Shown here in pieces: positions 1,653-11,547 of a DNA stretch of 64,000 nucleotides (within the stretch, counting starts at the first letter, position 1; the number at the start of each line of letters is the position of its first letter). This DNA comes from Armatimonadota bacterium (GTDB lineage Bacteria > Armatimonadota > SYMT01), in NCBI GenBank assembly GCA_041690135.1, contig JAWLHY010000015.1:128001-192000 (forward strand), given 5' to 3'. The position numbers and the translations under genes were made by a program. Under the pieces are notes generated by a model that was given only the letters and a program-made list of their open reading frames with translations, searched no databases and had not been told where the DNA came from.

Positions 1653-3335
1653 ATGGTGGTAAGAGAGCAACTGATGGCGGCCCTGGCGGGCGCGCGGGAT
1701 CGGGTAAGTGCGGACTTGAGACTGGCGCCGGAAGCGCCGGTCGAGGTCCGCTTGAGCGTTCCGCCCGGCGCGGATGCCGCGGACTTCTCCTCCGATCTGG
1801 CCCTGGACCTGGCCCGGATGGCGCGCCAACCCGCCGCGGAAGTGGCGCGCGCCCTGGTGGAGCATCTCGAACCGGTAGCGGAAGGGTTGGAGTGGGTGGA
1901 GCGGCTGGAGATCACTCCCAGTGGGCTGGTCAACTTCCACCTGCGATCGGACTGGGTTCGCGAGGCTATCCGGGAAGCCTGCCGGCAGGGGGTGCGGTAC
2001 GGTCGTTCGGAAGTAGCGCCGGAAGCCCAGGAGGAGCGTATCCAGGTAGAGTTCGTCAGTGCGAATCCCACCGGCCCGCTCACCATCGGCCACGGACGCG
2101 GCGCGGCCCTGGGAGACGCGATCGCCAATCTCCTGGAGTGGACCGGCCGCGGGGTGACTCGCGAGTCGTATGTCAACGATACCGGCAAGCAGATCGAGCG
2201 TTTCGGTCAGGCTCTCGAAGCCGCCTACCGGCGGCGCCTGGGTGGGTCGGCGGCCACCAGTAACGCTGCGGACGATCCGGCCGCGGAATACGCCGCCGAA
2301 ATTGCCGCCCGGATTCAGCCGAAGGCCGAGTCCCGCTGCGCCGGTCTTCCCGCCGAAGAGTGGCCTCGGGTTCTGGCGGAGTTGGGCGCCGAACAAGTGC
2401 TGACCGACCACCGCGCCGTGCTGGAGCGGTTCGGCGTCCGTATAGACGAGTGGCGCTCGGAGGCCGACCTCCTGGCCTCGGGCCGGTTGGAAGAGGCGAT
2501 CCAGACGCTTCGCACCAACGACTGCGTTTACGAAGCCGAAGGTGCGCTGTGGCTACGCGCCACCGCGAAGGGAGATTCGGAAGACCGCCCGCTGATCCGC
2601 AGCAACGGTCAACCGGCCTACCTGGCGGGGGACCTGGCCTACCACCTGGATAAATTCAGCCGGGGCTTCGACCGGGTCATCGATATCTGGGGACCGCATC
2701 ACGCGGAGTATGTCCGGCGTACCCTCGCGGGAGTCCGGGCCTTGGGTTGCAACGCGGACGCGCTGGAGATCGTCGTTTTTCAGCCCGTCTCCGTGAAGAT
2801 CGAAGGGGTAGTGGTCCATTCCGGCGAGGGTGGCGCCCGCGCGGGGAACAACTTACTCCTGGATCAGGTCATAGAGAAGGCAGGCAGGGGCACTCTTCGT
2901 TTCCTCTACCTTTCTCGCCCGGCAAACCAGCCGCTGGAGCTCGACCTGGATGCCCTGGCGGGTACGTCGAACCCGGCTTACCCCGTGCTCTGGGCTTACG
3001 AGGAAGCGGCTGTGTGTGCCGGTTCGGATTCCGTCTCAAGCGCCCAAACGGCCGAAGTGGAACTTGGAGAGTTGTCCGATCCGCGTGAAGAAACCCTGAT
3101 GCGCCGGTTGGCCGATTTTCCCGATCAGGTAGTGTTGGCGGCCCGAGAGCGGGATCCTTCGCGCCTCACCCGTTACGCACTGGAGACCGCGAGAGAGTTT
3201 GAAGCGTTCCGAGCCCTTCTGGCGTCCGGGCCGGAAGCTGGAAGTATCAAACCGGCCCACGCGGCGGTGGCACGCGCCACCCGCGTGGTGCTGGGCAACG
3301 CACTGGCAATCCTGGGCATCGTCGAACAGGAGTAA
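1653..3335 (+). CDS. argS: Arginine--tRNA ligase-like protein (divergent, see findings)
   Basis: VEFVSANPTGPLTIGHGRGAALGD, YVNDTGKQ, DLAYHLDK; KMSK and anticodon-domain motifs are degenerate. Confidence 0.75.
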   Translation: MVVREQLMAALAGARDRVSADLRLAPEAPVEVRLSVPPGADAADFSSDLALDLARMARQPAAEVARALVEHLEPVAEGLEWVERLEITPSGLVNFHLRSDWVREAIREACRQGVRYGRSEVAPEAQEERIQVEFVSANPTGPLTIGHGRGAALGDAIANLLEWTGRGVTRESYVNDTGKQIERFGQALEAAYRRRLGGSAATSNAADDPAAEYAAEIAARIQPKAESRCAGLPAEEWPRVLAELGAEQVLTDHRAVLERFGVRIDEWRSEADLLASGRLEEAIQTLRTNDCVYEAEGALWLRATAKGDSEDRPLIRSNGQPAYLAGDLAYHLDKFSRGFDRVIDIWGPHHAEYVRRTLAGVRALGCNADALEIVVFQPVSVKIEGVVVHSGEGGARAGNNLLLDQVIEKAGRGTLRFLYLSRPANQPLELDLDALAGTSNPAYPVLWAYEEAAVCAGSDSVSSAQTAEVELGELSDPREETLMRRLADFPDQVVLAARERDPSRLTRYALETAREFEAFRALLASGPEAGSIKPAHAAVARATRVVLGNALAILGIVEQE

Positions 3336-3341
3336 CACCCC

Positions 3342-5963
3342 ATGCAGGTAATCCGCTCGATGGCAGGCTGGAAAGTCCTGCTCGCATACGCCGGCGTGCT
3401 GGCCATGGCTCTTCCCGGCGCTGTGCGCGCAGACAAGGGCATCAACGACGGCGCCTTTCGCGACCACACCGGTAAGGAGCACACCTGGACCCTCGAGCGG
3501 AGCCACGTTCTCACCTGGAATGGTCAGCCCTACACCCCCGCGGGGCTCGTCTTCTATTCCCAGTATCTGAAACAGCCTTCCGCCGCAGCGCTCCAACAGG
3601 ACCAGCAGGAATTGGATCGCCTGAAGGCCGCCGGCGTGCAAGACCTCTGGATCGACCCGCAGCGTGGCCTCCTGGAAAACTCGACGGAACAGGTTCAGGC
3701 CGTGCTCGACTCGGTGGAGAGCCGGGGGTTCCGCTACGGGCTGCGTATCGGCGACCGGTCGCGCGAGCCGTTAATCGGATTCAGCCCAACCCTCGCTCCG
3801 GAGCCGGTGACCCGGGAGGAATTGCGGCCAGGCGGCAGGGTAGTGCGACGCCTGCGACCCGAAGCCGGCCGGCGGGTGATCTACAACCTCGTGGGCACCA
3901 GCGAGGATTTCCGCACCCATAACTGGACACTGGCGACCGGTGAGACGGTAGTCGCCGGCGACGCCGCCCAGATCGAAGTCCAGCTCAAGCCAAAGTCCTC
4001 CTTGCTGGGGAAGGGTCCCGGGTTGCTGCTCACCGTTCCGGAGGTCCAGGTGGAGCCGGAGGAATTGGGTAGTTTCGGCGACCTCTGGGAAGGCATGGAA
4101 GGTTACGCGGGACGGCTGACGCGCCACTTGAAGGCGCTGCGGTTCGGTCCGGGCTTCCGTTTCTTCCTCGACCCCATCGCGGCCGGAGACGGCACTATCG
4201 GGCAGGAAGACGGGATATTCCCCTCGTCCCACGTGTTCCGCACCGGGTTCAAAGAGTATCTCCAGCGCAATGGGGGGGTCAGCACCCTCAACATCCGGTG
4301 GCGCACCACCGACCGCCAGATTCTCACGGTCGAGCACGCCGCTCGCGTCATCCCGATGTGGGCCCGCAACGATCCGCCCGACGGCGACGGCTGGCTGTTC
4401 GATCCGGAAGACAAGGTCGCGTATCGCTGCATCCCCAAGGACAGCCGCATCTGGGACGACCTGGAGAATTTCCGTGCGGAGTGGCTCCGGCGCTGGATGA
4501 ACAACATCTCCAGCTCCATCAAGCAAGACGGGGTCAACGCGCCGGTCCTGTTTTCCTGGGCTTCCTATCACCCCATCTTCAACAACACGCCGGCCCCGTC
4601 CGGGTATGACGGTCTGGGCGCCCAGATCTACGGCGCGCCGGATACGGTGGCCCGCACCGCCGCCGCCTTTGCCCTGGCCCAGGTCGAGGAAGCAGACCGC
4701 AATACCTGGCTCATTGCTACCCGCCTCGCGGGACCGATCGGCGAGAACGGGGAGCCCACTCCACTCCGCACCGCGGAGGACGTTCGCAAGAGTTGGCAGG
4801 CGATCCGCGAGGCGGGCTTCCGCGGTTGCTTCCTCGATCCCCGCCAGCTCCCCGATGCGACCGCGCAACTCAAGGCACTGGCCGCGCAGGTGAGCGCCGA
4901 CCGCACCGCTATGGCCGAGAAAGTGCCGGTGATGTTCTTCCCGATGCCGTTGGCCACTTCCGACCGTCTGGCACGGCTCCAGACCGGCGTGTGGTGGCTG
5001 CCTTCGGGAATGCCGGCCCGCCTCCTGCGTTACGGCGACGGGATCATGGGATACCAGATCGACCGCCCGTTCGGAGAAGAACATGTGGTGAGAAATGCCG
5101 TCGTCATGTGGTCGACCGACGGTAAGCGGGACGCCACCTTCTACTATGACGGCCTCAGCCCGGTGGACGTTTACGACAACACCGGTAAACAGCTCAAGTT
5201 GAAGATGAAGAAGGGACAGCTCAAGCTGGCCCTGAGCGAGGAGCCGATTGTCGCAACCGGCCTGGACCCTATCGCCCTCTTCCCGCTGGAACTGGCCGTC
5301 ACCCACCTCCAGGAGTTCGACGATTTGCTGAGTGCCGCGGAAGCCCAAAAGCTGGACACCAAGTCGATGCGGTTCCTGTTCGAGGAAGCCAAGAAGTCCC
5401 TCGCGCCGAATAGCGCGGGCGCGGTCTACAACTCGATCCTCCCTTACCTCATCTCCCTGCGACAGGCCGTTTCCCCCTTCGTCTGGCTGGAAGGCGAAAA
5501 CACCTCCGGCCATAACATGAACGGCATTGCGTTTCTGGCAGGCAGCAGCAACGGTACGTATCTCAAGCTGGATAAGAAGAAGGCTCCACCTTCCGGCTCC
5601 TATCGAGTCCGGTACGTGTTCGAGATCCGGCGCGACGCCACGTACGAAATCTGGATCGCGGGAAAAGTTCCGGGACGACCGGGGGTTTCTCCGCTGGTAT
5701 GGCAACTGGATGAGGAGCCTGAAGCCCAGGTTACCAGCGCCAGCCCCCACGGCTCGGACTACACCCCCGGCATGGCCTGGTATTCCCTCGGCAAGACAAC
5801 CCTGAAGGTAGGACGGCATACTCTCAGCCTGCGGGTGCCGGAGAGTTCCGCCACCGCCGAAGGGAAATACGCCGGAGGGATCGACGTGATCATGCTGACG
5901 CGCGATGGCTCGAAGCCCAGTGGCATCGACAAGCCGTACGGCAAGCTCCGCGCCTCCAAGTAA
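3342..5963 (+). CDS. Large secreted hypothetical protein, possible glycoside-hydrolase-like barrel plus C-terminal beta-sandwich
   Basis: Signal peptide ending AVRA-D; 873 aa with typical codon usage; aromatic-rich; C-terminal YEIWIAG...GRHTLSL...GIDVIML. Confidence 0.65.
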   Translation: MQVIRSMAGWKVLLAYAGVLAMALPGAVRADKGINDGAFRDHTGKEHTWTLERSHVLTWNGQPYTPAGLVFYSQYLKQPSAAALQQDQQELDRLKAAGVQDLWIDPQRGLLENSTEQVQAVLDSVESRGFRYGLRIGDRSREPLIGFSPTLAPEPVTREELRPGGRVVRRLRPEAGRRVIYNLVGTSEDFRTHNWTLATGETVVAGDAAQIEVQLKPKSSLLGKGPGLLLTVPEVQVEPEELGSFGDLWEGMEGYAGRLTRHLKALRFGPGFRFFLDPIAAGDGTIGQEDGIFPSSHVFRTGFKEYLQRNGGVSTLNIRWRTTDRQILTVEHAARVIPMWARNDPPDGDGWLFDPEDKVAYRCIPKDSRIWDDLENFRAEWLRRWMNNISSSIKQDGVNAPVLFSWASYHPIFNNTPAPSGYDGLGAQIYGAPDTVARTAAAFALAQVEEADRNTWLIATRLAGPIGENGEPTPLRTAEDVRKSWQAIREAGFRGCFLDPRQLPDATAQLKALAAQVSADRTAMAEKVPVMFFPMPLATSDRLARLQTGVWWLPSGMPARLLRYGDGIMGYQIDRPFGEEHVVRNAVVMWSTDGKRDATFYYDGLSPVDVYDNTGKQLKLKMKKGQLKLALSEEPIVATGLDPIALFPLELAVTHLQEFDDLLSAAEAQKLDTKSMRFLFEEAKKSLAPNSAGAVYNSILPYLISLRQAVSPFVWLEGENTSGHNMNGIAFLAGSSNGTYLKLDKKKAPPSGSYRVRYVFEIRRDATYEIWIAGKVPGRPGVSPLVWQLDEEPEAQVTSASPHGSDYTPGMAWYSLGKTTLKVGRHTLSLRVPESSATAEGKYAGGIDVIMLTRDGSKPSGIDKPYGKLRASK

Positions 5964-5984
5964 CAGAGGCTCAGATCGCCTGCA

Positions 5985-6962
5985 GTGCAACTGCAGGCGG
6001 AAACTTCGCGCGTAAGCCTGCCCGTACGGGTGGTACTGCGCTCCTTACTCGATCCCATGCAGCGACGTCTCTGGCAGCGCGGACCCGACGGCGAGATCAT
6101 CCGCGCTGCGCCCGACGAGATAACTTCCCAGGAGGGTCTCACCCCTGGCGAGTTGGAAAGCGGCGAGCCCGAGCCACAACCCCGACGGCGGGCTCACCTC
6201 GGTCTGGCACTTCGTCTCGGCTTTCGCGACACCTACGACTATCTCGGCGCCGTGCTCGTGATGAGCCTGGCCGCTGCGCTCATTCCCATGGCCGGGATGT
6301 TCGGCGGATATGCAGCCGGCACCGCGCTATCCTCTCCATTTCCCGACCGCCTGAGTGCACTCCTCGCCATTCTCATGGCCCTGCTCGGGGGGGCGGCCGT
6401 GGGCGGACCGGTCGCCGCCGGCCTCTACCGGTTCAGCCGGAACGCTGCGGCGCGTTCCGAACCCGAGGTCTTTGACCTGGGGTGGGGGTTCCGTTCCGCT
6501 CTTGGGCGCAGCGTGGGCCTGGGGCTGATCCAGGCACTGGGCGCCGCGCTCCTGGCGGGCAACGGCTACTTCTACCTGTTCCAGCGGCAAACGGTGTGGG
6601 TGGTGCTCGGCGCCATCTTCGGCTACCTGCTCCTTTTCTGGCTCCTGATGCTGCTCTATCAGTGGCCGCTGTTCATCGAGCAAGATCTGGCGCCGGTGGC
6701 GGCGGTGCGGAAGTCCGCGCTCCTCGTGCTGGACAACTTCGGCTACTCGCTCGGCGTCGGGCTGGTGGCCGCCCTGCTCAGTGTCCTGCTGTGGGCTTTC
6801 CTCGTTCCCGGCGTGCTGCTGTGGGGCGGCGCCATGGCCCTGATCTCCACGCAGGCCACCCGCGAACTCCTGCGCAAGTACGGGGTGCTCGGCCCCGATC
6901 CCACCCTCGACCCCATCGCCGACGAGACCCACGAGTTCGGCGGCCGCGGCTGGCACGAGTAA
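5985..6962 (+). CDS. Integral membrane protein (DUF624/YesL-like)
   Basis: About 6 TM helices; LYQWPLFIEQD...RKSALLVLDN pattern; start uncertain. Confidence 0.6.
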   Translation: MQLQAETSRVSLPVRVVLRSLLDPMQRRLWQRGPDGEIIRAAPDEITSQEGLTPGELESGEPEPQPRRRAHLGLALRLGFRDTYDYLGAVLVMSLAAALIPMAGMFGGYAAGTALSSPFPDRLSALLAILMALLGGAAVGGPVAAGLYRFSRNAAARSEPEVFDLGWGFRSALGRSVGLGLIQALGAALLAGNGYFYLFQRQTVWVVLGAIFGYLLLFWLLMLLYQWPLFIEQDLAPVAAVRKSALLVLDNFGYSLGVGLVAALLSVLLWAFLVPGVLLWGGAMALISTQATRELLRKYGVLGPDPTLDPIADETHEFGGRGWHE

Positions 6963-7022: not shown

Positions 7023-7523
7023 ATGCTCGCACGTGAACGCGCCGCCGCGCCGGTGCACCCGTGGGTGGGGCTCGCCGGCTTCATCCTGCTGTGCCTGGCG
7101 GCCGGCTGGATCGGGTCAATCTTTACGGGGTCGTCCGTGGACACCTGGTATCAGACCCTCCAAAAGCCGCCCTGGAACCCGCCCGAATGGGTCTTCGGTC
7201 CCGTCTGGACGGTGCTCTATGTGCTGATGGGCATCGCCGCCTGGCTCGTTTGGCGGGAGTACGGTTTCACGGGCGCCCCCGTGGCGATGGGTCTCTTCCT
7301 CACCCAACTCGCGCTCAATATCCTCTGGAGCGGTATCTTCTTCGGCCTGCGCGAACCCGGCTGGGCCGCGGTCGAAATCCTCTTTCTCTGGGCAGCCGTA
7401 CTCGGCACCATGGTGCTGTTCGGCCGCCTCAACCGGGCTGCAGGCTGGCTCTTCGCCCCCTACCTGGCCTGGGTAACCTATGCAACCACGATCAATTTTG
7501 CAGTCTGGTGGTTAAACAAATGA
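7023..7523 (+). CDS. tspO: TspO/MBR tryptophan-rich sensory protein
   Basis: WYQTLQKPPWNPPEWVFGPVWTVLY, LNILWSGIFFG, PYLAWVTYA. Confidence 0.95.
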   Translation: MLARERAAAPVHPWVGLAGFILLCLAAGWIGSIFTGSSVDTWYQTLQKPPWNPPEWVFGPVWTVLYVLMGIAAWLVWREYGFTGAPVAMGLFLTQLALNILWSGIFFGLREPGWAAVEILFLWAAVLGTMVLFGRLNRAAGWLFAPYLAWVTYATTINFAVWWLNK

Positions 7524-8263
7524 AGCAAGTATTCAACCGCGATCGTTCACGCGACAATCTTGAGGCAGGGTGTTGCAACCATTCCAGGTGCACACAGAAC
7601 CCGCTCTGCCCCAGACCCTCATGCCTCAAGGATGACGGATCACGCGGCCAAAGAACGAGGAGCGTATCCAATAGCCGGTCGCACGCTCTACGCACGACCC
7701 TCCTGTCAGTGGTCTTGCTAGGGCTCCTCGCTGCCGGTTGCGAGCAGCGCGTCCAGATGGCGCCGCGGCAGCGACCGCAGCCCGCGCCCACCCAGCCAAC
7801 CCCATCAAAACCGGAGACGACGCGTCCCGCGCCCGAGGGTCCGGAGGCACAGACGCAGCAGTTGGGGCAGATCGAACAGGACATCTTCCGACGCATTAAT
7901 CAGCAACGCCAGGAAGCCGGACTCGCCCCGCTGGAGAATAACTCGCGCCTCCGACAACTGGCCCGCGACTACAGCCGGCAGATGGCGCGCCAGAACTTCT
8001 TCAGTCATGTCAGCCCGGGCGGGGAGAGCGTGGTGGACCGTGCCCAGGAAGCCAATCTCCGGTACAGCTACATCGGGGAGAATATCTTCAAGAGCGTGAA
8101 TGCTCCCCTCAACCGCCTGCCGAACATTGCCGTGCAGGGCTGGATGGACAGCCCCGGCCACCGCCGGAACATCCTCCGCGAGGCCTTTACGGAAACCGGC
8201 GTAGGCGCCTGGCGGCAGAACAACACCGTCTACGTCACGCAGGTGTTCCGCCGCCCACGGTAG
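7520..8263 (+). CDS. CAP/SCP-domain lipoprotein (start uncertain, may be near 7660)
   Basis: Lipobox LAAGC; INQQR...FFSH...GENI...GWMDSPGHRRNIL...GVG. Confidence 0.85.
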   Translation: MKQVFNRDRSRDNLEAGCCNHSRCTQNPLCPRPSCLKDDGSRGQRTRSVSNSRSHALRTTLLSVVLLGLLAAGCEQRVQMAPRQRPQPAPTQPTPSKPETTRPAPEGPEAQTQQLGQIEQDIFRRINQQRQEAGLAPLENNSRLRQLARDYSRQMARQNFFSHVSPGGESVVDRAQEANLRYSYIGENIFKSVNAPLNRLPNIAVQGWMDSPGHRRNILREAFTETGVGAWRQNNTVYVTQVFRRPR

Positions 8264-8916: not shown

Positions 8917-11547
8917 ATGATGCGCACCAGTAACGAGCTTCGGCAGCTTTTCCTCGAGTTCATGGAGAGCAAGGGGCACAAGATCCTGCCCGGTATCTCC
9001 CTCGTCCCCACCGACCCGTCGATCTTCCTCACGACGGCCGGCGTGGTGCCGTTCCAGGCCATGCTGGAAGGGCGGGAGCCGGCTCCGTACCCCCGCATCG
9101 CCACCTGCCAGCGCTGCTGCCGGACCACCGACCTGGAGAGCGTCGGGAAGTTCGCACGGTATCACACATTCTTCGAGATGCTGGGCAACTGGTCGTTCGG
9201 CGACTACTTCAAGCGCGAAACGCTCACCTGGGGCTGGGAGTTCATTACCGAGGTCCTGGGCATCGATCGGAACCGGATCTGGGCGACCGTCTTCGGCAAC
9301 CACGAGCAGTACCCGGACGACGACGAAGCCTACGACATCTGGCTGAACGTGATCGGGTTACCGGCGGAGCGCATCATCAAGCTGCCGGATAACTGGTGGG
9401 GACCCGTGCTGGAGACCGGCGCCTGCGGCCCGGACAGCGAAGTCTACTTCGACCTGGGCCCGGAGTTCGGCTGCGGCTCCGCGGAGTGCAAGCCGGGCTG
9501 CGACTGCGACCGCTACCTGGAGTTCTGGAATCACGTTTTCACCCAGTACTACAAGCACGCCGACGGAAGCTTCACACCCCTTCAGAACCAGAACATCGAC
9601 ACGGGCATGGGCCTGGAGCGCCTGACCTGCGTCGTCCAGAACAAGCGGCATGTCTACGAGACCGACCTCTTCGCTCCGATCATGGAGCGCGTGGAGGAGG
9701 TTCTTACGCGCGCCACCGGCAGCGCGGGCGATCCGGATGACTGGCGCAAGCGCGTGATCGCGGACCACACCCGCGCGGCGACGTTTATGGTGATGGACGG
9801 CATCTACCCGGCCAACACCGGCCGCGGCTACGTGCTGCGGCGGATCATCCGCCGGGCCGCCACCTTCGGCTTCCTGCTGGGCGTCAAGCAGCCGTTCATC
9901 CACGAGATCGTTCCCCAGGTCATCGAGAAGATGAAGACCGGGTACCCGGAACTGGCGGAAAAGCAGGAAGTGATCCTGCAGCAGATCCGGAAGGAAGAGA
10001 ACCAGTTTGCCAGCACCCTGGACCGGGGCGTACCACGCTTCCTGGATCGGGCGAAGTCCGGCGGCATCATCGACGGTCACTTTGCGTTCGACATTTACCA
10101 GCAGGACGGCGTCCCGTTCGAGGTGATGCAGGAACTCGCCGCCGAGTACGCGGCCACCATCGACGAAGAAGGGTACGGCCAAGCGCGCGACGACCATGCG
10201 GCGAAGTCCGGCAAGGGCTCCGCGGTCAAATCGAACTTCCAGGCGCTCAACGTGCCCGCGACGGAGTTCGTCGGCTACGACGGCACCGAGGGGGAAGGCG
10301 AGGTGCTGCTGCTGCTCCACGAGGGCGAGACGGTCGATTCCCTGGAGCCGGGCGAGGTCGGTTGGGTCGTACTGGACCGCACCCCGTTCTACGGCGAGAG
10401 CGGCGGCCAGATCGGCGATACCGGCCGGATGCTGGCGGGGGAGGGGGGCGTCTCCGCGTTGGCGACCGTCCTCGATACCCAGAAGCAGGGCCAGGTGTTC
10501 CTCCACGCCGTCCGTGTGGAGCAGGGACGCATCCACCCCGGCATGCGGCTGGAGACGGAGGTCGACGGGGAGCGGCGCGAGGCGATCCGGCGCGCCCACA
10601 CGGCGACCCACCTCCTGCACGCCTCACTGCGGCAGGTGCTAGGCCCCCACGTGGTCCAGCGCGGCTCCATTGTCGAGCCCGATACCCTACGCTTCGACTT
10701 CGCGCACGACCAGGCGATGACCCCGGAGGAGATCCAGCAGGTCGAGGCGATCATGAACGCGCAGGTCCTGCGGGACACGCCCGTCTCCATCGACTACCGC
10801 ACCCAGGGCGAGGCGCGCGACATCGGCGCGATGATGCTCTTCGGCGAGAAGTACGGGGAGATCGTCCGCGTGGTGCAGGTACCCGGCTTCAGCGTGGAGC
10901 TCTGCGGCGGCACCCACGTGCCCCGGACCGGCACCATCGGCCTGATCAAGATCACCAGTGAGGGGAGCGCGGCGGCGGGCATCCGGCGCGTCGAATGCAC
11001 CACCGGCATGGGTTCGCTGGAGTACCTCCAGGCGCAGACGGCAAAGCTCCGCGAAATCGCGGAAGCCCTCGGCGGACCGGTGGACCAGATCCTGGGCCGC
11101 ATCGGCTCGCAGAAGGACCAGATCTCCCAGCTCCGTCGCCAACTCGACGAGGCCCGGCGCTCCGCGGCGGGCGGCGCGCTCGAGCGGCTGCTCGCGGACC
11201 GGGTGGAAGTGAAGGGCGTCCCGGTTGTCGCCGCGCAGGCGGACTCCGGCGATCCGGCGGCCGTGAAGACCCTGGTCGACCAGTTGGCCGAGCGCCTGAA
11301 GAACGGCGTGGTGGTGCTGGCCGGCGCCACTGACGGCAAGGGGATCATCGTCGCCAAGGCGACCCCCGATGCGGTCGCGCGCGGCGCCCACGCCGGCAAC
11401 CTGGTCCGTGAGGTGGCGAAGATCGCCGGCGGCGGCGGTGGCGGCCGTCCCGAGTTCGCCCAGGCGGGTGCTCGCGACGTCTCCAAGATCGAGGAAGCCC
11501 TCGACGCCGTCTCGTCGCTCCTGGAGGCCCAGATCAAGTCGGATTAG
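8917..11547 (+). CDS. alaS: Alanine--tRNA ligase
   Basis: HTFFEMLGNWSFGDYFK, IDTGMGLER, HTATHLL, ELCGGTH, GGGGRPEFAQAG. Confidence 0.98.
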   Translation: MMRTSNELRQLFLEFMESKGHKILPGISLVPTDPSIFLTTAGVVPFQAMLEGREPAPYPRIATCQRCCRTTDLESVGKFARYHTFFEMLGNWSFGDYFKRETLTWGWEFITEVLGIDRNRIWATVFGNHEQYPDDDEAYDIWLNVIGLPAERIIKLPDNWWGPVLETGACGPDSEVYFDLGPEFGCGSAECKPGCDCDRYLEFWNHVFTQYYKHADGSFTPLQNQNIDTGMGLERLTCVVQNKRHVYETDLFAPIMERVEEVLTRATGSAGDPDDWRKRVIADHTRAATFMVMDGIYPANTGRGYVLRRIIRRAATFGFLLGVKQPFIHEIVPQVIEKMKTGYPELAEKQEVILQQIRKEENQFASTLDRGVPRFLDRAKSGGIIDGHFAFDIYQQDGVPFEVMQELAAEYAATIDEEGYGQARDDHAAKSGKGSAVKSNFQALNVPATEFVGYDGTEGEGEVLLLLHEGETVDSLEPGEVGWVVLDRTPFYGESGGQIGDTGRMLAGEGGVSALATVLDTQKQGQVFLHAVRVEQGRIHPGMRLETEVDGERREAIRRAHTATHLLHASLRQVLGPHVVQRGSIVEPDTLRFDFAHDQAMTPEEIQQVEAIMNAQVLRDTPVSIDYRTQGEARDIGAMMLFGEKYGEIVRVVQVPGFSVELCGGTHVPRTGTIGLIKITSEGSAAAGIRRVECTTGMGSLEYLQAQTAKLREIAEALGGPVDQILGRIGSQKDQISQLRRQLDEARRSAAGGALERLLADRVEVKGVPVVAAQADSGDPAAVKTLVDQLAERLKNGVVVLAGATDGKGIIVAKATPDAVARGAHAGNLVREVAKIAGGGGGGRPEFAQAGARDVSKIEEALDAVSSLLEAQIKSD

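Follow-up and report, generated by a model that had tools for sequence, protein, structure and literature searches.

An arginyl-tRNA synthetase-like protein of Armatimonadota that appears to be kept by selection after losing features for tRNA charging

What is an arginyl-tRNA synthetase (ArgRS) homologue good for if its genome holds a second, canonical argS and its own motifs for tRNA charging are gone? The question is raised by P0001, a 560-residue protein encoded near the start of a 64,000-nucleotide stretch of contig JAWLHY010000015.1 (positions 128,001 to 192,000, forward strand) in the Armatimonadota bacterium assembly GCA_041690135.1. This whole stretch is referred to as the window, and the features discussed are collected in Table 1. 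A preliminary description, drawn from the nucleotide sequence, regarded the gene as a paralog that was repurposed to activate arginine and that possibly works with neighbouring secreted and membrane proteins. The analysis presented here suggests a different history and role. With a probability of roughly 0.6, P0001 descends from ArgRS, has ceased to charge tRNA and is retained by selection as a protein that probably binds arginine or a guanidino ligand.

In the following, the kind of ArgRS encoded in the window is called type A (Bacillota/Campylobacter-like), and the kind encoded on contig C1 of the same genome is called type B (E. coli/cyanobacterial type). The P0001 gene begins with an ATG behind a Shine-Dalgarno-like GAAGG box and, as the preliminary description had it, runs at full length without a frameshift through 560 stop-free codons. 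Its product matches TIGR00456, the argS equivalog profile, nearly from end to end (profile positions 22–564 of 569). With 255.8 bits (255.2 in a search of the whole genome) it stays under the cut-off of 261.65, and five canonical type A enzymes score 432–480 bits. The three-domain architecture of ArgRS is present, with PF03485, PF00750 and PF05746 each exceeding their Pfam cut-offs, although the domain scores are low (46.6, 38.7 and 33.8 bits versus 416.6, 113.1 and 94.2 bits for the other argS of the genome). An AlphaFold2 model computed from 25 sequences of the degenerate clade described below reached a predicted local distance difference test score (pLDDT) of 88.7. Values under 50 are confined to three short segments, among them the former KMSK loop (residues 393–399), and the helices of the DALR domain are modelled at high pLDDT. 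When this model was submitted to Foldseek, the top 19 ranks were all occupied by ArgRS, led by 3fnr, 2zue, 1iq0 and 5yym (also 1f7u) with template modelling (TM) scores of 0.68–0.76. Among solved structures, the C. jejuni enzyme 3fnr is also nearest in sequence (phmmer E 6.8e-52). In this prediction, the ArgRS fold of P0001 is intact.

The motifs that in canonical enzymes serve charging have not been spared. All motifs and replacements quoted in the preliminary description were found again in P0001, and the replacements were checked against 20 sole-copy relatives and 3fnr. At the KMSK-type loop, MSKRAGN of 3fnr aligns onto GGARAGN, so that the loop lysine is absent; here the degenerate clade has acquired a new signature, GNN, whose N399 is conserved in 92% of the members. 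The canonical anticodon-domain motifs NPVYYVQYAHAR and FHxFY have become NPAYPVLWAYEEA and FEAFR, and the protein ends with ...VEQE instead of the C-terminal Met. In the N-terminal domain, the GD[YF]xxN motif reads ADFSSD (aa 43–48); its last position is Asn in 95% of the canonical type A sequences versus Asp in 83% of the degenerate clade. The preliminary description had summarized the gene as keeping the amino acid/ATP half and losing the tRNA motifs. This holds for the HIGH region, YVND and DLAYH, which are intact, and for the tRNA-recognition motifs, which are gone, but the eroded MSKR loop itself belongs to the ATP/catalytic half.

The YxQY motif and the terminal Met contact the anticodon of tRNA-Arg. 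The main identity elements of this tRNA are C35 and A20, and A20-dependent enzymes carry a GDYQ-like motif, according to the part of Igloi 2021 (PMC8318970) covered here; A20 is recognised by the Add1 domain, as stated in PMC3956977, which is likewise cited throughout for the part covered. Two further arguments about RNA contacts were abandoned. The anticodon domain is somewhat more acidic in the clade (net charge −4.6, with −8 for P0001) than in canonical enzymes (−2.6), a difference too weak to argue for a loss of RNA binding. The Tyr/Phe-Asn motif of the A20 pocket was dropped as evidence as well: most clade members have His or Arg in place of its Tyr, but Lys or Arg also stands there in canonical type B enzymes.

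A second, canonical argS, for which the preliminary description had suggested looking, is indeed present in the genome (9.1 Mb in 25 contigs, estimated 97% complete). TIGR00456 hits two places only, P0001 and C1:620109–621884(−), the latter with 550.2 bits; P0001 is thus not the sole argS. The type B protein on C1 (609 aa by ORF listing) displays GDYQSN, HVGH, FKTRSGD and a terminal ...LEQM, and is merely 24% identical to P0001. It shares 63–78% identity with other type B enzymes of Armatimonadota, followed by a Phycisphaerales enzyme (60%) and many from Nostocales (57–58%), a distribution that fits an acquisition of type B from outside. Presumably, it is this enzyme that performs housekeeping charging of tRNA-Arg.

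The loss of charging motifs is tied to this second gene across relatives. Forty related genomes and the window's own (41 in total) were searched with both proteins. Type B (E <= 1e-30) occurs in 16 of them, namely in all seven genomes of family f1 (including the window's), each of which holds both types, and in all genomes of families f3 (3/3), f5 (3/3), f13 (2/2) and f20 (1/1), while most of the remaining genomes contain a single strong type A match. For a comparison of motifs, 32 type A proteins were aligned, 20 from genomes without type B and 12 that stand beside it. All 20 sole copies keep [MGSL][SG][KT]R, NP[VM][YF]Y[VIA]QY[AG]H[AT]R and AP..M; FHxFY is found in 18 of these and replaced by LNxFY in the other two. 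By contrast, the loop lysine, the full YYVQY and the terminal Met are missing from every one of the 12 copies beside type B (G000–G006, G008, G036, G010, G038 and G025), among which those of family f3 are least altered (SRRAG, NPAYAVQWAHAR). The core motifs EFVSAxP...xR, Y[VIL]N[DN] and DxAY[HNA] persist in all 32 proteins. As relatives are not independent, the 12 losses amount to three or four events.

Two further type A genes, from family f13, have been shortened at the same locus. The copies of G018 (480 aa; L144, G018:C59 2490–3929) and G031 (460 aa; L145, G031:C2 2339–3718), with lengths counted from stop to stop, have a reduced anticodon domain and, in G031, also a reduced N-terminal domain, and retain EYVSA[DN]P...HAR, YLA[GS]DLAYH and DLWDxDH. 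Type B only is found in G032 and in G023, a member of family f3 whose relatives G008 and G036 have both types. Among the two-copy genomes, G008 has the type A gene that has degenerated least. The type B match of this genome (L131, G008:C72:392–2164) carries one in-frame TAG, which may stem from an error in sequencing, from disruption of the gene or from a contig edge.

The degenerate family appears to be modest in size but real. Its members closest to P0001 are P0005 (86% identity) and P0006 (66%). In a tally of 153 sequences, composed of the best 150 library matches (representatives at 50% identity), P0001 and the canonical P0014 and P0052, 17 including P0001 lack all four motifs. The source databases label the members of the clade 'arginine--tRNA ligase'. 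A metagenome scan for a close DNA counterpart yielded none: among the matches listed (at least 80 loci), identity was at most 40%, in the range of canonical ArgRS matches. A search of sequencing runs listed none of RNA, and three DNA runs, which contain at most 0.08 of the sampled words, contributed fragments of just 45–215 bases, too short to reveal variants or expression.

How the two genes came to coexist can be approached by a gene tree (91 sequences, IQ-TREE with posterior mean site frequencies (PMSF), quick search, midpoint-rooted). The degenerate clade comprises 36 sequences, seven copies from f1 and 29 metagenomic proteins, and has 99% support in the Shimodaira–Hasegawa-like approximate likelihood ratio test (SH-aLRT). 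A motif-intact sole-copy enzyme from the same order (G007, family f2) and similar metagenomic proteins are basal among the canonical enzymes, on the opposite side of the tree from the clade. The tree places the degenerate f5 copies, with a stem length of 1.35, and those of f3 elsewhere, amid canonical enzymes, and the type A copy of G001, in which the region of the anticodon motif is deleted, sits on a branch of length 1.63. Long-branch attraction would be expected to draw the f5, f3 and f1 sequences together rather than to separate them. The quick tree, together with the position of each copy at the ancestral locus, suggests that degenerate copies arose independently in at least three clades.

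Gene order gives a consistent picture. The genes for P0003, P0001, P0002 and P0004 follow one another with gaps of 6–22 bp, and this order is kept in all six f1 relatives as well as around the canonical argS of G007. In many Armatimonadota families, type A argS directly follows a CBS-DUF1385 gene, at 12 of 21 loci where it is the sole copy and at 12 of 13 in two-copy genomes, and a homologue of the 873-aa protein P0002 lies 3' of it at six of 21 and eight of 13, respectively; the degenerate copies of f3 and f5 have no such 873-aa neighbour. Homologues of P0004 occur in G001, G003, G004, G005, G007 and G017. Further downstream, alaS marks the locus as a housekeeping neighbourhood, and a 45% identical alaS homologue is found near argS in the sole-copy genome G026. 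Because the same neighbours accompany motif-intact argS genes, they predate the degeneration, and the tight spacing is ancestral and no evidence of a new pathway. The order shared with canonical argS identifies P0001 as the resident ortholog at its ancestral locus. The view of the preliminary description that P0001 is a paralog must hence be reversed: both the gene tree and the flanks shared with G007 point to the resident gene, and it is the other argS, so distant from P0001, that resembles enzymes of Phycisphaerales and Nostocales at 57–60% identity.

Which parts of the active site remain? In E. coli ArgRS, arginine is held through its guanidinium group by D118, Y313 and D317, and its main chain is bound by N123 and Q341, described as 'strictly conserved', along with A121 and H132 (PMC3956977). 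By aligning type A to the E. coli-like type B, D118/Y313/D317, N123, Q341 and H132 would correspond to E133/Y323/D327, N138, H350 and H147 of P0001, equivalences that follow from motif alignment. On this mapping, P0001 has the residues of both the side-chain and the main-chain pocket (E133, Y323, D327, N138 and H350). All 25 clade members compared share E133, H147-G148-R149, Y323, D327 and H350. In canonical type A enzymes, by contrast, the His of this HGR, part of the HIGH region, is often Asn, Gln or Ser. The main-chain binder at position 138 behaves differently: retained as Asn in P0001, it is Asn in just 11 of the 36 clade members and Tyr, Asp, Gln, Ser or His in the other 25 (manual count).

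When the 36 clade sequences were compared position by position with 107 canonical type A enzymes, in P0001 numbering, 69 positions proved to be conserved in both groups. Another 33 are conserved to at least 85% in the canonical enzymes but to less than 50% in the clade. Among them are S, K and R of MSKR, and they cluster in this loop, within the anticodon domain (Y443, Y444, Y447, H449, A450, R451, H517, F519 and R520 of canonical enzymes), at the AP..M end and in the N-terminal domain, where the Asn of GD[YF]xxN turned into Asp and AGxGF into SPSG. Conversely, 23 positions are conserved to at least 80% in the clade and different or variable in canonical enzymes, for example D48, W163, R183, L301, L328, T357, G360 and N399; L328, T357 and G360 are even found in 100% of the clade. 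Such new, clade-specific conservation speaks for a changed function rather than for relaxed selection alone.

Selection was assessed by codon models (GY+F3X4+G4) for the seven f1 genomes, using 455 gap-free codons of type A and 587 of type B. The ratio of nonsynonymous to synonymous rates (omega, dN/dS) was 0.12 for type A (0.25 as a first estimate) and 0.058 for type B (0.108). Within type A, it amounted to 0.21 in the N-terminal, 0.13 in the catalytic and 0.22 in the anticodon-binding domain (80 gap-free codons for the last). For a control, these columns were read with the frame shifted by one or two bases; omega was then 1.7–4.6 for both genes, which shows the in-frame signal to be real despite saturation. 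Among the seven genomes, type A proteins are 33–45% and type B proteins 60–70% identical, i.e. type A evolves about twice as fast. Still, the alignment of 25 clade sequences (43–86% identity to P0001) contains 70 invariant columns, none of the P0001-matching stretches in the 41 genomes, including the 12 aligned two-copy type A genes, has an internal stop, and all 29 metagenomic members are full-length homologues. In these comparisons, the clade clearly appears to be under purifying selection and not decaying, despite its lost charging determinants. The outcome of the conservation and dN/dS analysis that the preliminary description had proposed is thus purifying selection (omega 0.12–0.25) instead of relaxed decay, and a non-translational role becomes plausible.

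A scenario for these observations would begin with the original type A argS of the lineage, which stays at its ancestral locus when an argS of the E. coli/cyanobacterial type arrives and takes over the charging of tRNA-Arg. The released type A protein may then have lost the MSKR lysine, the motifs of the anticodon domain, the Asn of GD[YF]xxN and the C-terminal Met, with retention of the three-domain fold, HGR and the residues that presumably hold the guanidinium group. A clade of at least 36 proteins would subsequently have acquired conserved residues of its own under purifying selection. The protein could now act independently of tRNA by binding arginine or a guanidino ligand, perhaps also a nucleotide, as a regulator, sensor or scaffold. 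A pocket and an HGR that are kept, a variable Asn, and charging features that vanish only beside a second argS fit such a non-charging binder of arginine or a guanidino compound.

Conceivably, the new role is a second function that the ancestral enzyme already had, as suggested by the retention of the same core in at least three clades and in the shortened f13 relics. In a bolder form, which we consider tentative and rather doubtful, the ancestral type A ArgRS of Armatimonadota would have a second, tRNA-independent function residing in the Rossmann core and the guanidinium pocket, maybe tied to the CBS-DUF1385 neighbour. Once a foreign argS does the charging, this function would be the sole force that keeps the old gene, and a so far undescribed family of arginine/guanidino sensors or enzymes could have arisen repeatedly (in f1, f3, f5 and f13).

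Several points weigh against P0001 being a non-charging arginine binder. It misses the TIGR00456 cut-off by about 6 bits, and the clade members P0007 (332.5 bits) and P0009 (303.5) exceed it. The proposed loss of charging is deduced from motifs alone, and the proposed role is generic. Moreover, KMSK is exceptionally degenerate across ArgRS, including many working enzymes (PMC8318970 and PMC3956977, in the parts covered), so that loss of the loop by itself is no proof of inactivity. The conserved pocket residues could serve the stability of the fold instead of ligand binding. Finally, the tree stems from a quick search and contains long branches, and the omega values are rough since synonymous sites are saturated (tree length of 19 substitutions per codon).

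The alternative that survives best, though in our view still unlikely, is the one favoured by the preliminary description: a repurposed ligase that activates arginine and passes arginyl adenylate (Arg-AMP) to an acceptor other than tRNA, in concert with the secreted and membrane proteins of the neighbouring genes and in the manner of MshC, GluQ and EpmA. The strict invariance of HGR in the clade, beyond that seen in canonical type A, and of the guanidinium triad would suit such an enzyme. Activation of arginine is nevertheless doubtful, given that the loop lysine was lost with no replacement seen, that ArgRS requires bound tRNA for this step (PMC3956977) yet the tRNA-recognition motifs are gone, and that adenylation chemistry, if conserved, would hardly leave the main-chain Asn free to vary. 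The suggested partnership could draw on the tight four-gene order maintained in the f1 relatives, but it turned out to be unspecific, as the CBS-DUF1385 and 873-aa genes also flank sole-copy, motif-intact argS and the latter is missing next to the degenerate f3 and f5 copies.

Ranking behind the ligase, and likewise improbable, is a working auxiliary ArgRS with unorthodox motifs, such as a stress, isoacceptor-specific or inhibitor-resistant isoform of the kind known among other duplicated synthetases. Such an isoform could account for the three domains and the overall fold, for a TIGR00456 match that is near full length and just under the cut-off, and for purifying selection on every domain; KMSK degeneracy is tolerated in ArgRS (PMC8318970, PMC3956977), and the nine tRNA-Arg genes called by ARAGORN in the genome include atypical ones. 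It is difficult to square with the 33 lost canonical positions, which cluster in the MSKR loop, anticodon domain and C-terminus, and with losses confined to genomes with a second argS (12/12 versus 0/20). Likewise, a working synthetase would hardly be expected to replace the 'strictly conserved' main-chain Asn (PMC3956977) in 25 of 36 members or to dispense with entire portions of its N-terminal and C-terminal domains, as in the f13 relics.

Least probable of all is a functionless relic in slow decay, held open by operon structure, translational coupling or the short time elapsed: the twofold faster evolution of type A, the long branch and deletion in G001, the truncated f13 relics and the existence of complete loss in G023 are in line with it, but not the contrast between in-frame and out-of-frame omega, the 70 invariant columns and 23 clade-specific conserved positions, the retention of the same core in four separate lineages, or the absence of internal stops from the genomic copies and the full length of the metagenomic homologues over a span in which the essential type B diverged by 30–40%.

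Compared with known systems, P0001 is nearest to canonical type A ArgRS (TIGR00456; 3fnr, Bacillota), with which it shares descent, the three-domain fold (Foldseek against 3fnr, E 6.5e-30, TMt 0.88), the core SANPTGPL...HGR, YxND, YxAxDxAYHxxK and WGxxH, and the genomic locus. It differs in lacking the MSKR lysine, NPVYYVQYAHAR, FHxFY, APExM and GD[YF]xxN of these enzymes and in coexisting with another argS. MshC and GluQRS are paralogs of aminoacyl-tRNA synthetases (aaRS) with non-translational roles, and repurposed paralogs of this sort usually either have no anticodon-binding domain or retain the class signature motifs along with adenylation activity. P0001 resembles HisZ, MshC, GluQRS (YadB) and EpmA/PoxA as an aaRS core that exists beside the canonical enzyme and that in those proteins is reused outside tRNA charging; unlike them, it keeps all domains but lacks the catalytic loop lysine. 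A review on such proteins names HisZ and PoxA in its Table 1 (PMC9437257, parts covered).

Coexistence with a canonical synthetase of the same specificity, a mark of pseudo-synthetases, is also a trait of the leucyl-tRNA synthetase (LeuRS) copies LeuRS-I of Sulfolobaceae and LeuRS2 of Halobacteria. Like P0001, these are full-length copies with disrupted or divergent domains that have been retained beside the canonical enzyme; they charge tRNA poorly or not at all, and their role is given as unknown in the covered parts of PMC9437257. In contrast to P0001, they are archaeal and derived from LeuRS, and LeuRS-I was found by experiment to make the adenylate and to bind tRNA, whereas P0001 is known from its sequence. 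A further difference is that here the degenerate copy is the resident and the presumably working copy the newcomer.

The only ArgRS-related non-synthetase family returned by profile libraries is NrtL (NF045898, 'ArgS-related anticodon-binding protein'). P0001 reaches 83.9 bits at profile positions 20–180, far from the cut-off of 340, and with its 560 residues it differs from a profile of 327 positions. Canonical ArgRS score higher on this profile (132–169 bits), so that the match reflects shared ArgRS domains and an assignment to NrtL was discarded. No paper that names NrtL together with tRNA emerged from the literature search. In the covered parts of PMC9437257, the term 'ArgRS' is absent from the text and Table 1 has no ArgRS row. 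Searches of main texts returned no description of an ArgRS-derived paralog, and the terms ArgRS-like and ArgRS-paralog had no counterpart among the matches listed, which came from the unrelated string 'args2'.

Synthetase-derived proteins such as HisZ, EpmA, MshC and LeuRS-I represent a classic route to new functions, for which an ArgRS-derived example was not met in these searches. Displacement of the resident argS in several lineages amounts to a natural experiment in which the same charging features were lost and the same core was kept each time. This pattern separates ArgRS residues for charging from those that perhaps serve something else. For annotation, it matters that the clade is hidden among argS names, with two members above the profile cut-off, which means that the argS content deduced for Armatimonadota can be wrong. 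Should the retained function be the sensing of arginine or a new type of ligation, purified protein would allow a direct test.

With regard to the genes next to P0001, a protein atlas returned high values for P0002 (0.96–0.98) only with hypothetical proteins from Armatimonadota, and P0002 accordingly looks specific to this phylum. Leads toward GH42, GHL10 and carbohydrate-binding module (CBM) proteins were weak (0.81–0.84, below 0.85). The CBS-DUF1385 proteins have invariant H224, E227, H228, H252, R254 and C255 that resemble a metal site (loci L036–L047 and L144–L165). A 739-aa antisense ORF at 3771–5990 (−) overlaps the 873-aa gene, one of many long shadow ORFs in the window; these are expected at 65% GC, and their tblastn matches in relatives mirror the sense gene.

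Table 1. Position of the P0001 gene, its domains and motifs, and the surrounding genes in the window.
Feature	Position	Strand	Basis and remarks
CBS-pair + DUF1385 membrane protein P0003	461–1630	+	Pfam DUF1385 51.9, CBS 45.1 bits; 22 bp upstream of P0001
ArgRS-derived gene P0001, 560 aa	1653–3335	+	ORF and translation, stop-free, 560 codons
N-terminal Add1-type domain, aa 18–97	1704–1943	+	Pfam Arg_tRNA_synt_N 33.8 bits
Rossmann-fold catalytic domain, aa 125–373	2025–2771	+	Pfam tRNA-synt_1d 46.6 bits
HIGH-region motif EFVSANPTGPLTIGHGR, aa 133–149	2049–2099	+	motif located in translation
YVND, aa 173–176	2169–2180	+	motif located in translation
YLAGDLAYH, aa 323–331 (contains DLAYH)	2619–2645	+	motif located in translation
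WGPHHAEY, aa 346–353	2688–2711	+	motif located in translation
Former KMSK-type loop HSGEGGARAGN, aa 389–399	2817–2849	+	canonical counterpart xMSKRAGD/N, lysine gone
Degenerate anticodon-domain motif NPAYPVLWAYEEA, aa 440–452	2970–3008	+	canonical counterpart NPVYYVQYAHAR
DALR anticodon-binding domain, aa 471–556	3063–3320	+	Pfam DALR_1 38.7 bits, fold kept (model)
FEAFR (canonical FHxFY), aa 516–520	3198–3212	+	motif located in translation
C-terminus LGIVEQE, aa 554–560, and stop	3312–3335	+	stops two residues short of the terminal Met in APExM
873-aa protein P0002, N-terminal hydrophobic signal-like stretch	3342–5963	+	no Pfam/NCBIfam family
325-aa multi-pass membrane protein P0004	5985–6962	+	no family
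400-aa ORF, C-terminal CAP/SCP domain	7061–8263	+	PF00188 73.3 bits; between P0004 and alaS
alaS, alanyl-tRNA synthetase	8917–11547	+	Pfam tRNA-synt_2c 539.7 bits, tRNA_SAD, DHHA1; 5.6 kb downstream

A dedicated, odd tRNA for P0001 was considered as well and rejected: the nine tRNA-Arg calls comprise standard-looking ones with ordinary D-loops, and none is linked to P0001. On contigs C1, C2, C4, C6 and C11, outside the window, the anticodon GCG occurs three times and ACG not at all among the tRNA-Arg calls, and two odd 'tRNA-Arg(CCG)' calls of 74 and 96 nt resemble false positives. ARAGORN also placed a cluster of tRNA genes on contig C4 at about 52.4–53.6 kb and a tRNA-SeC on contig C1.

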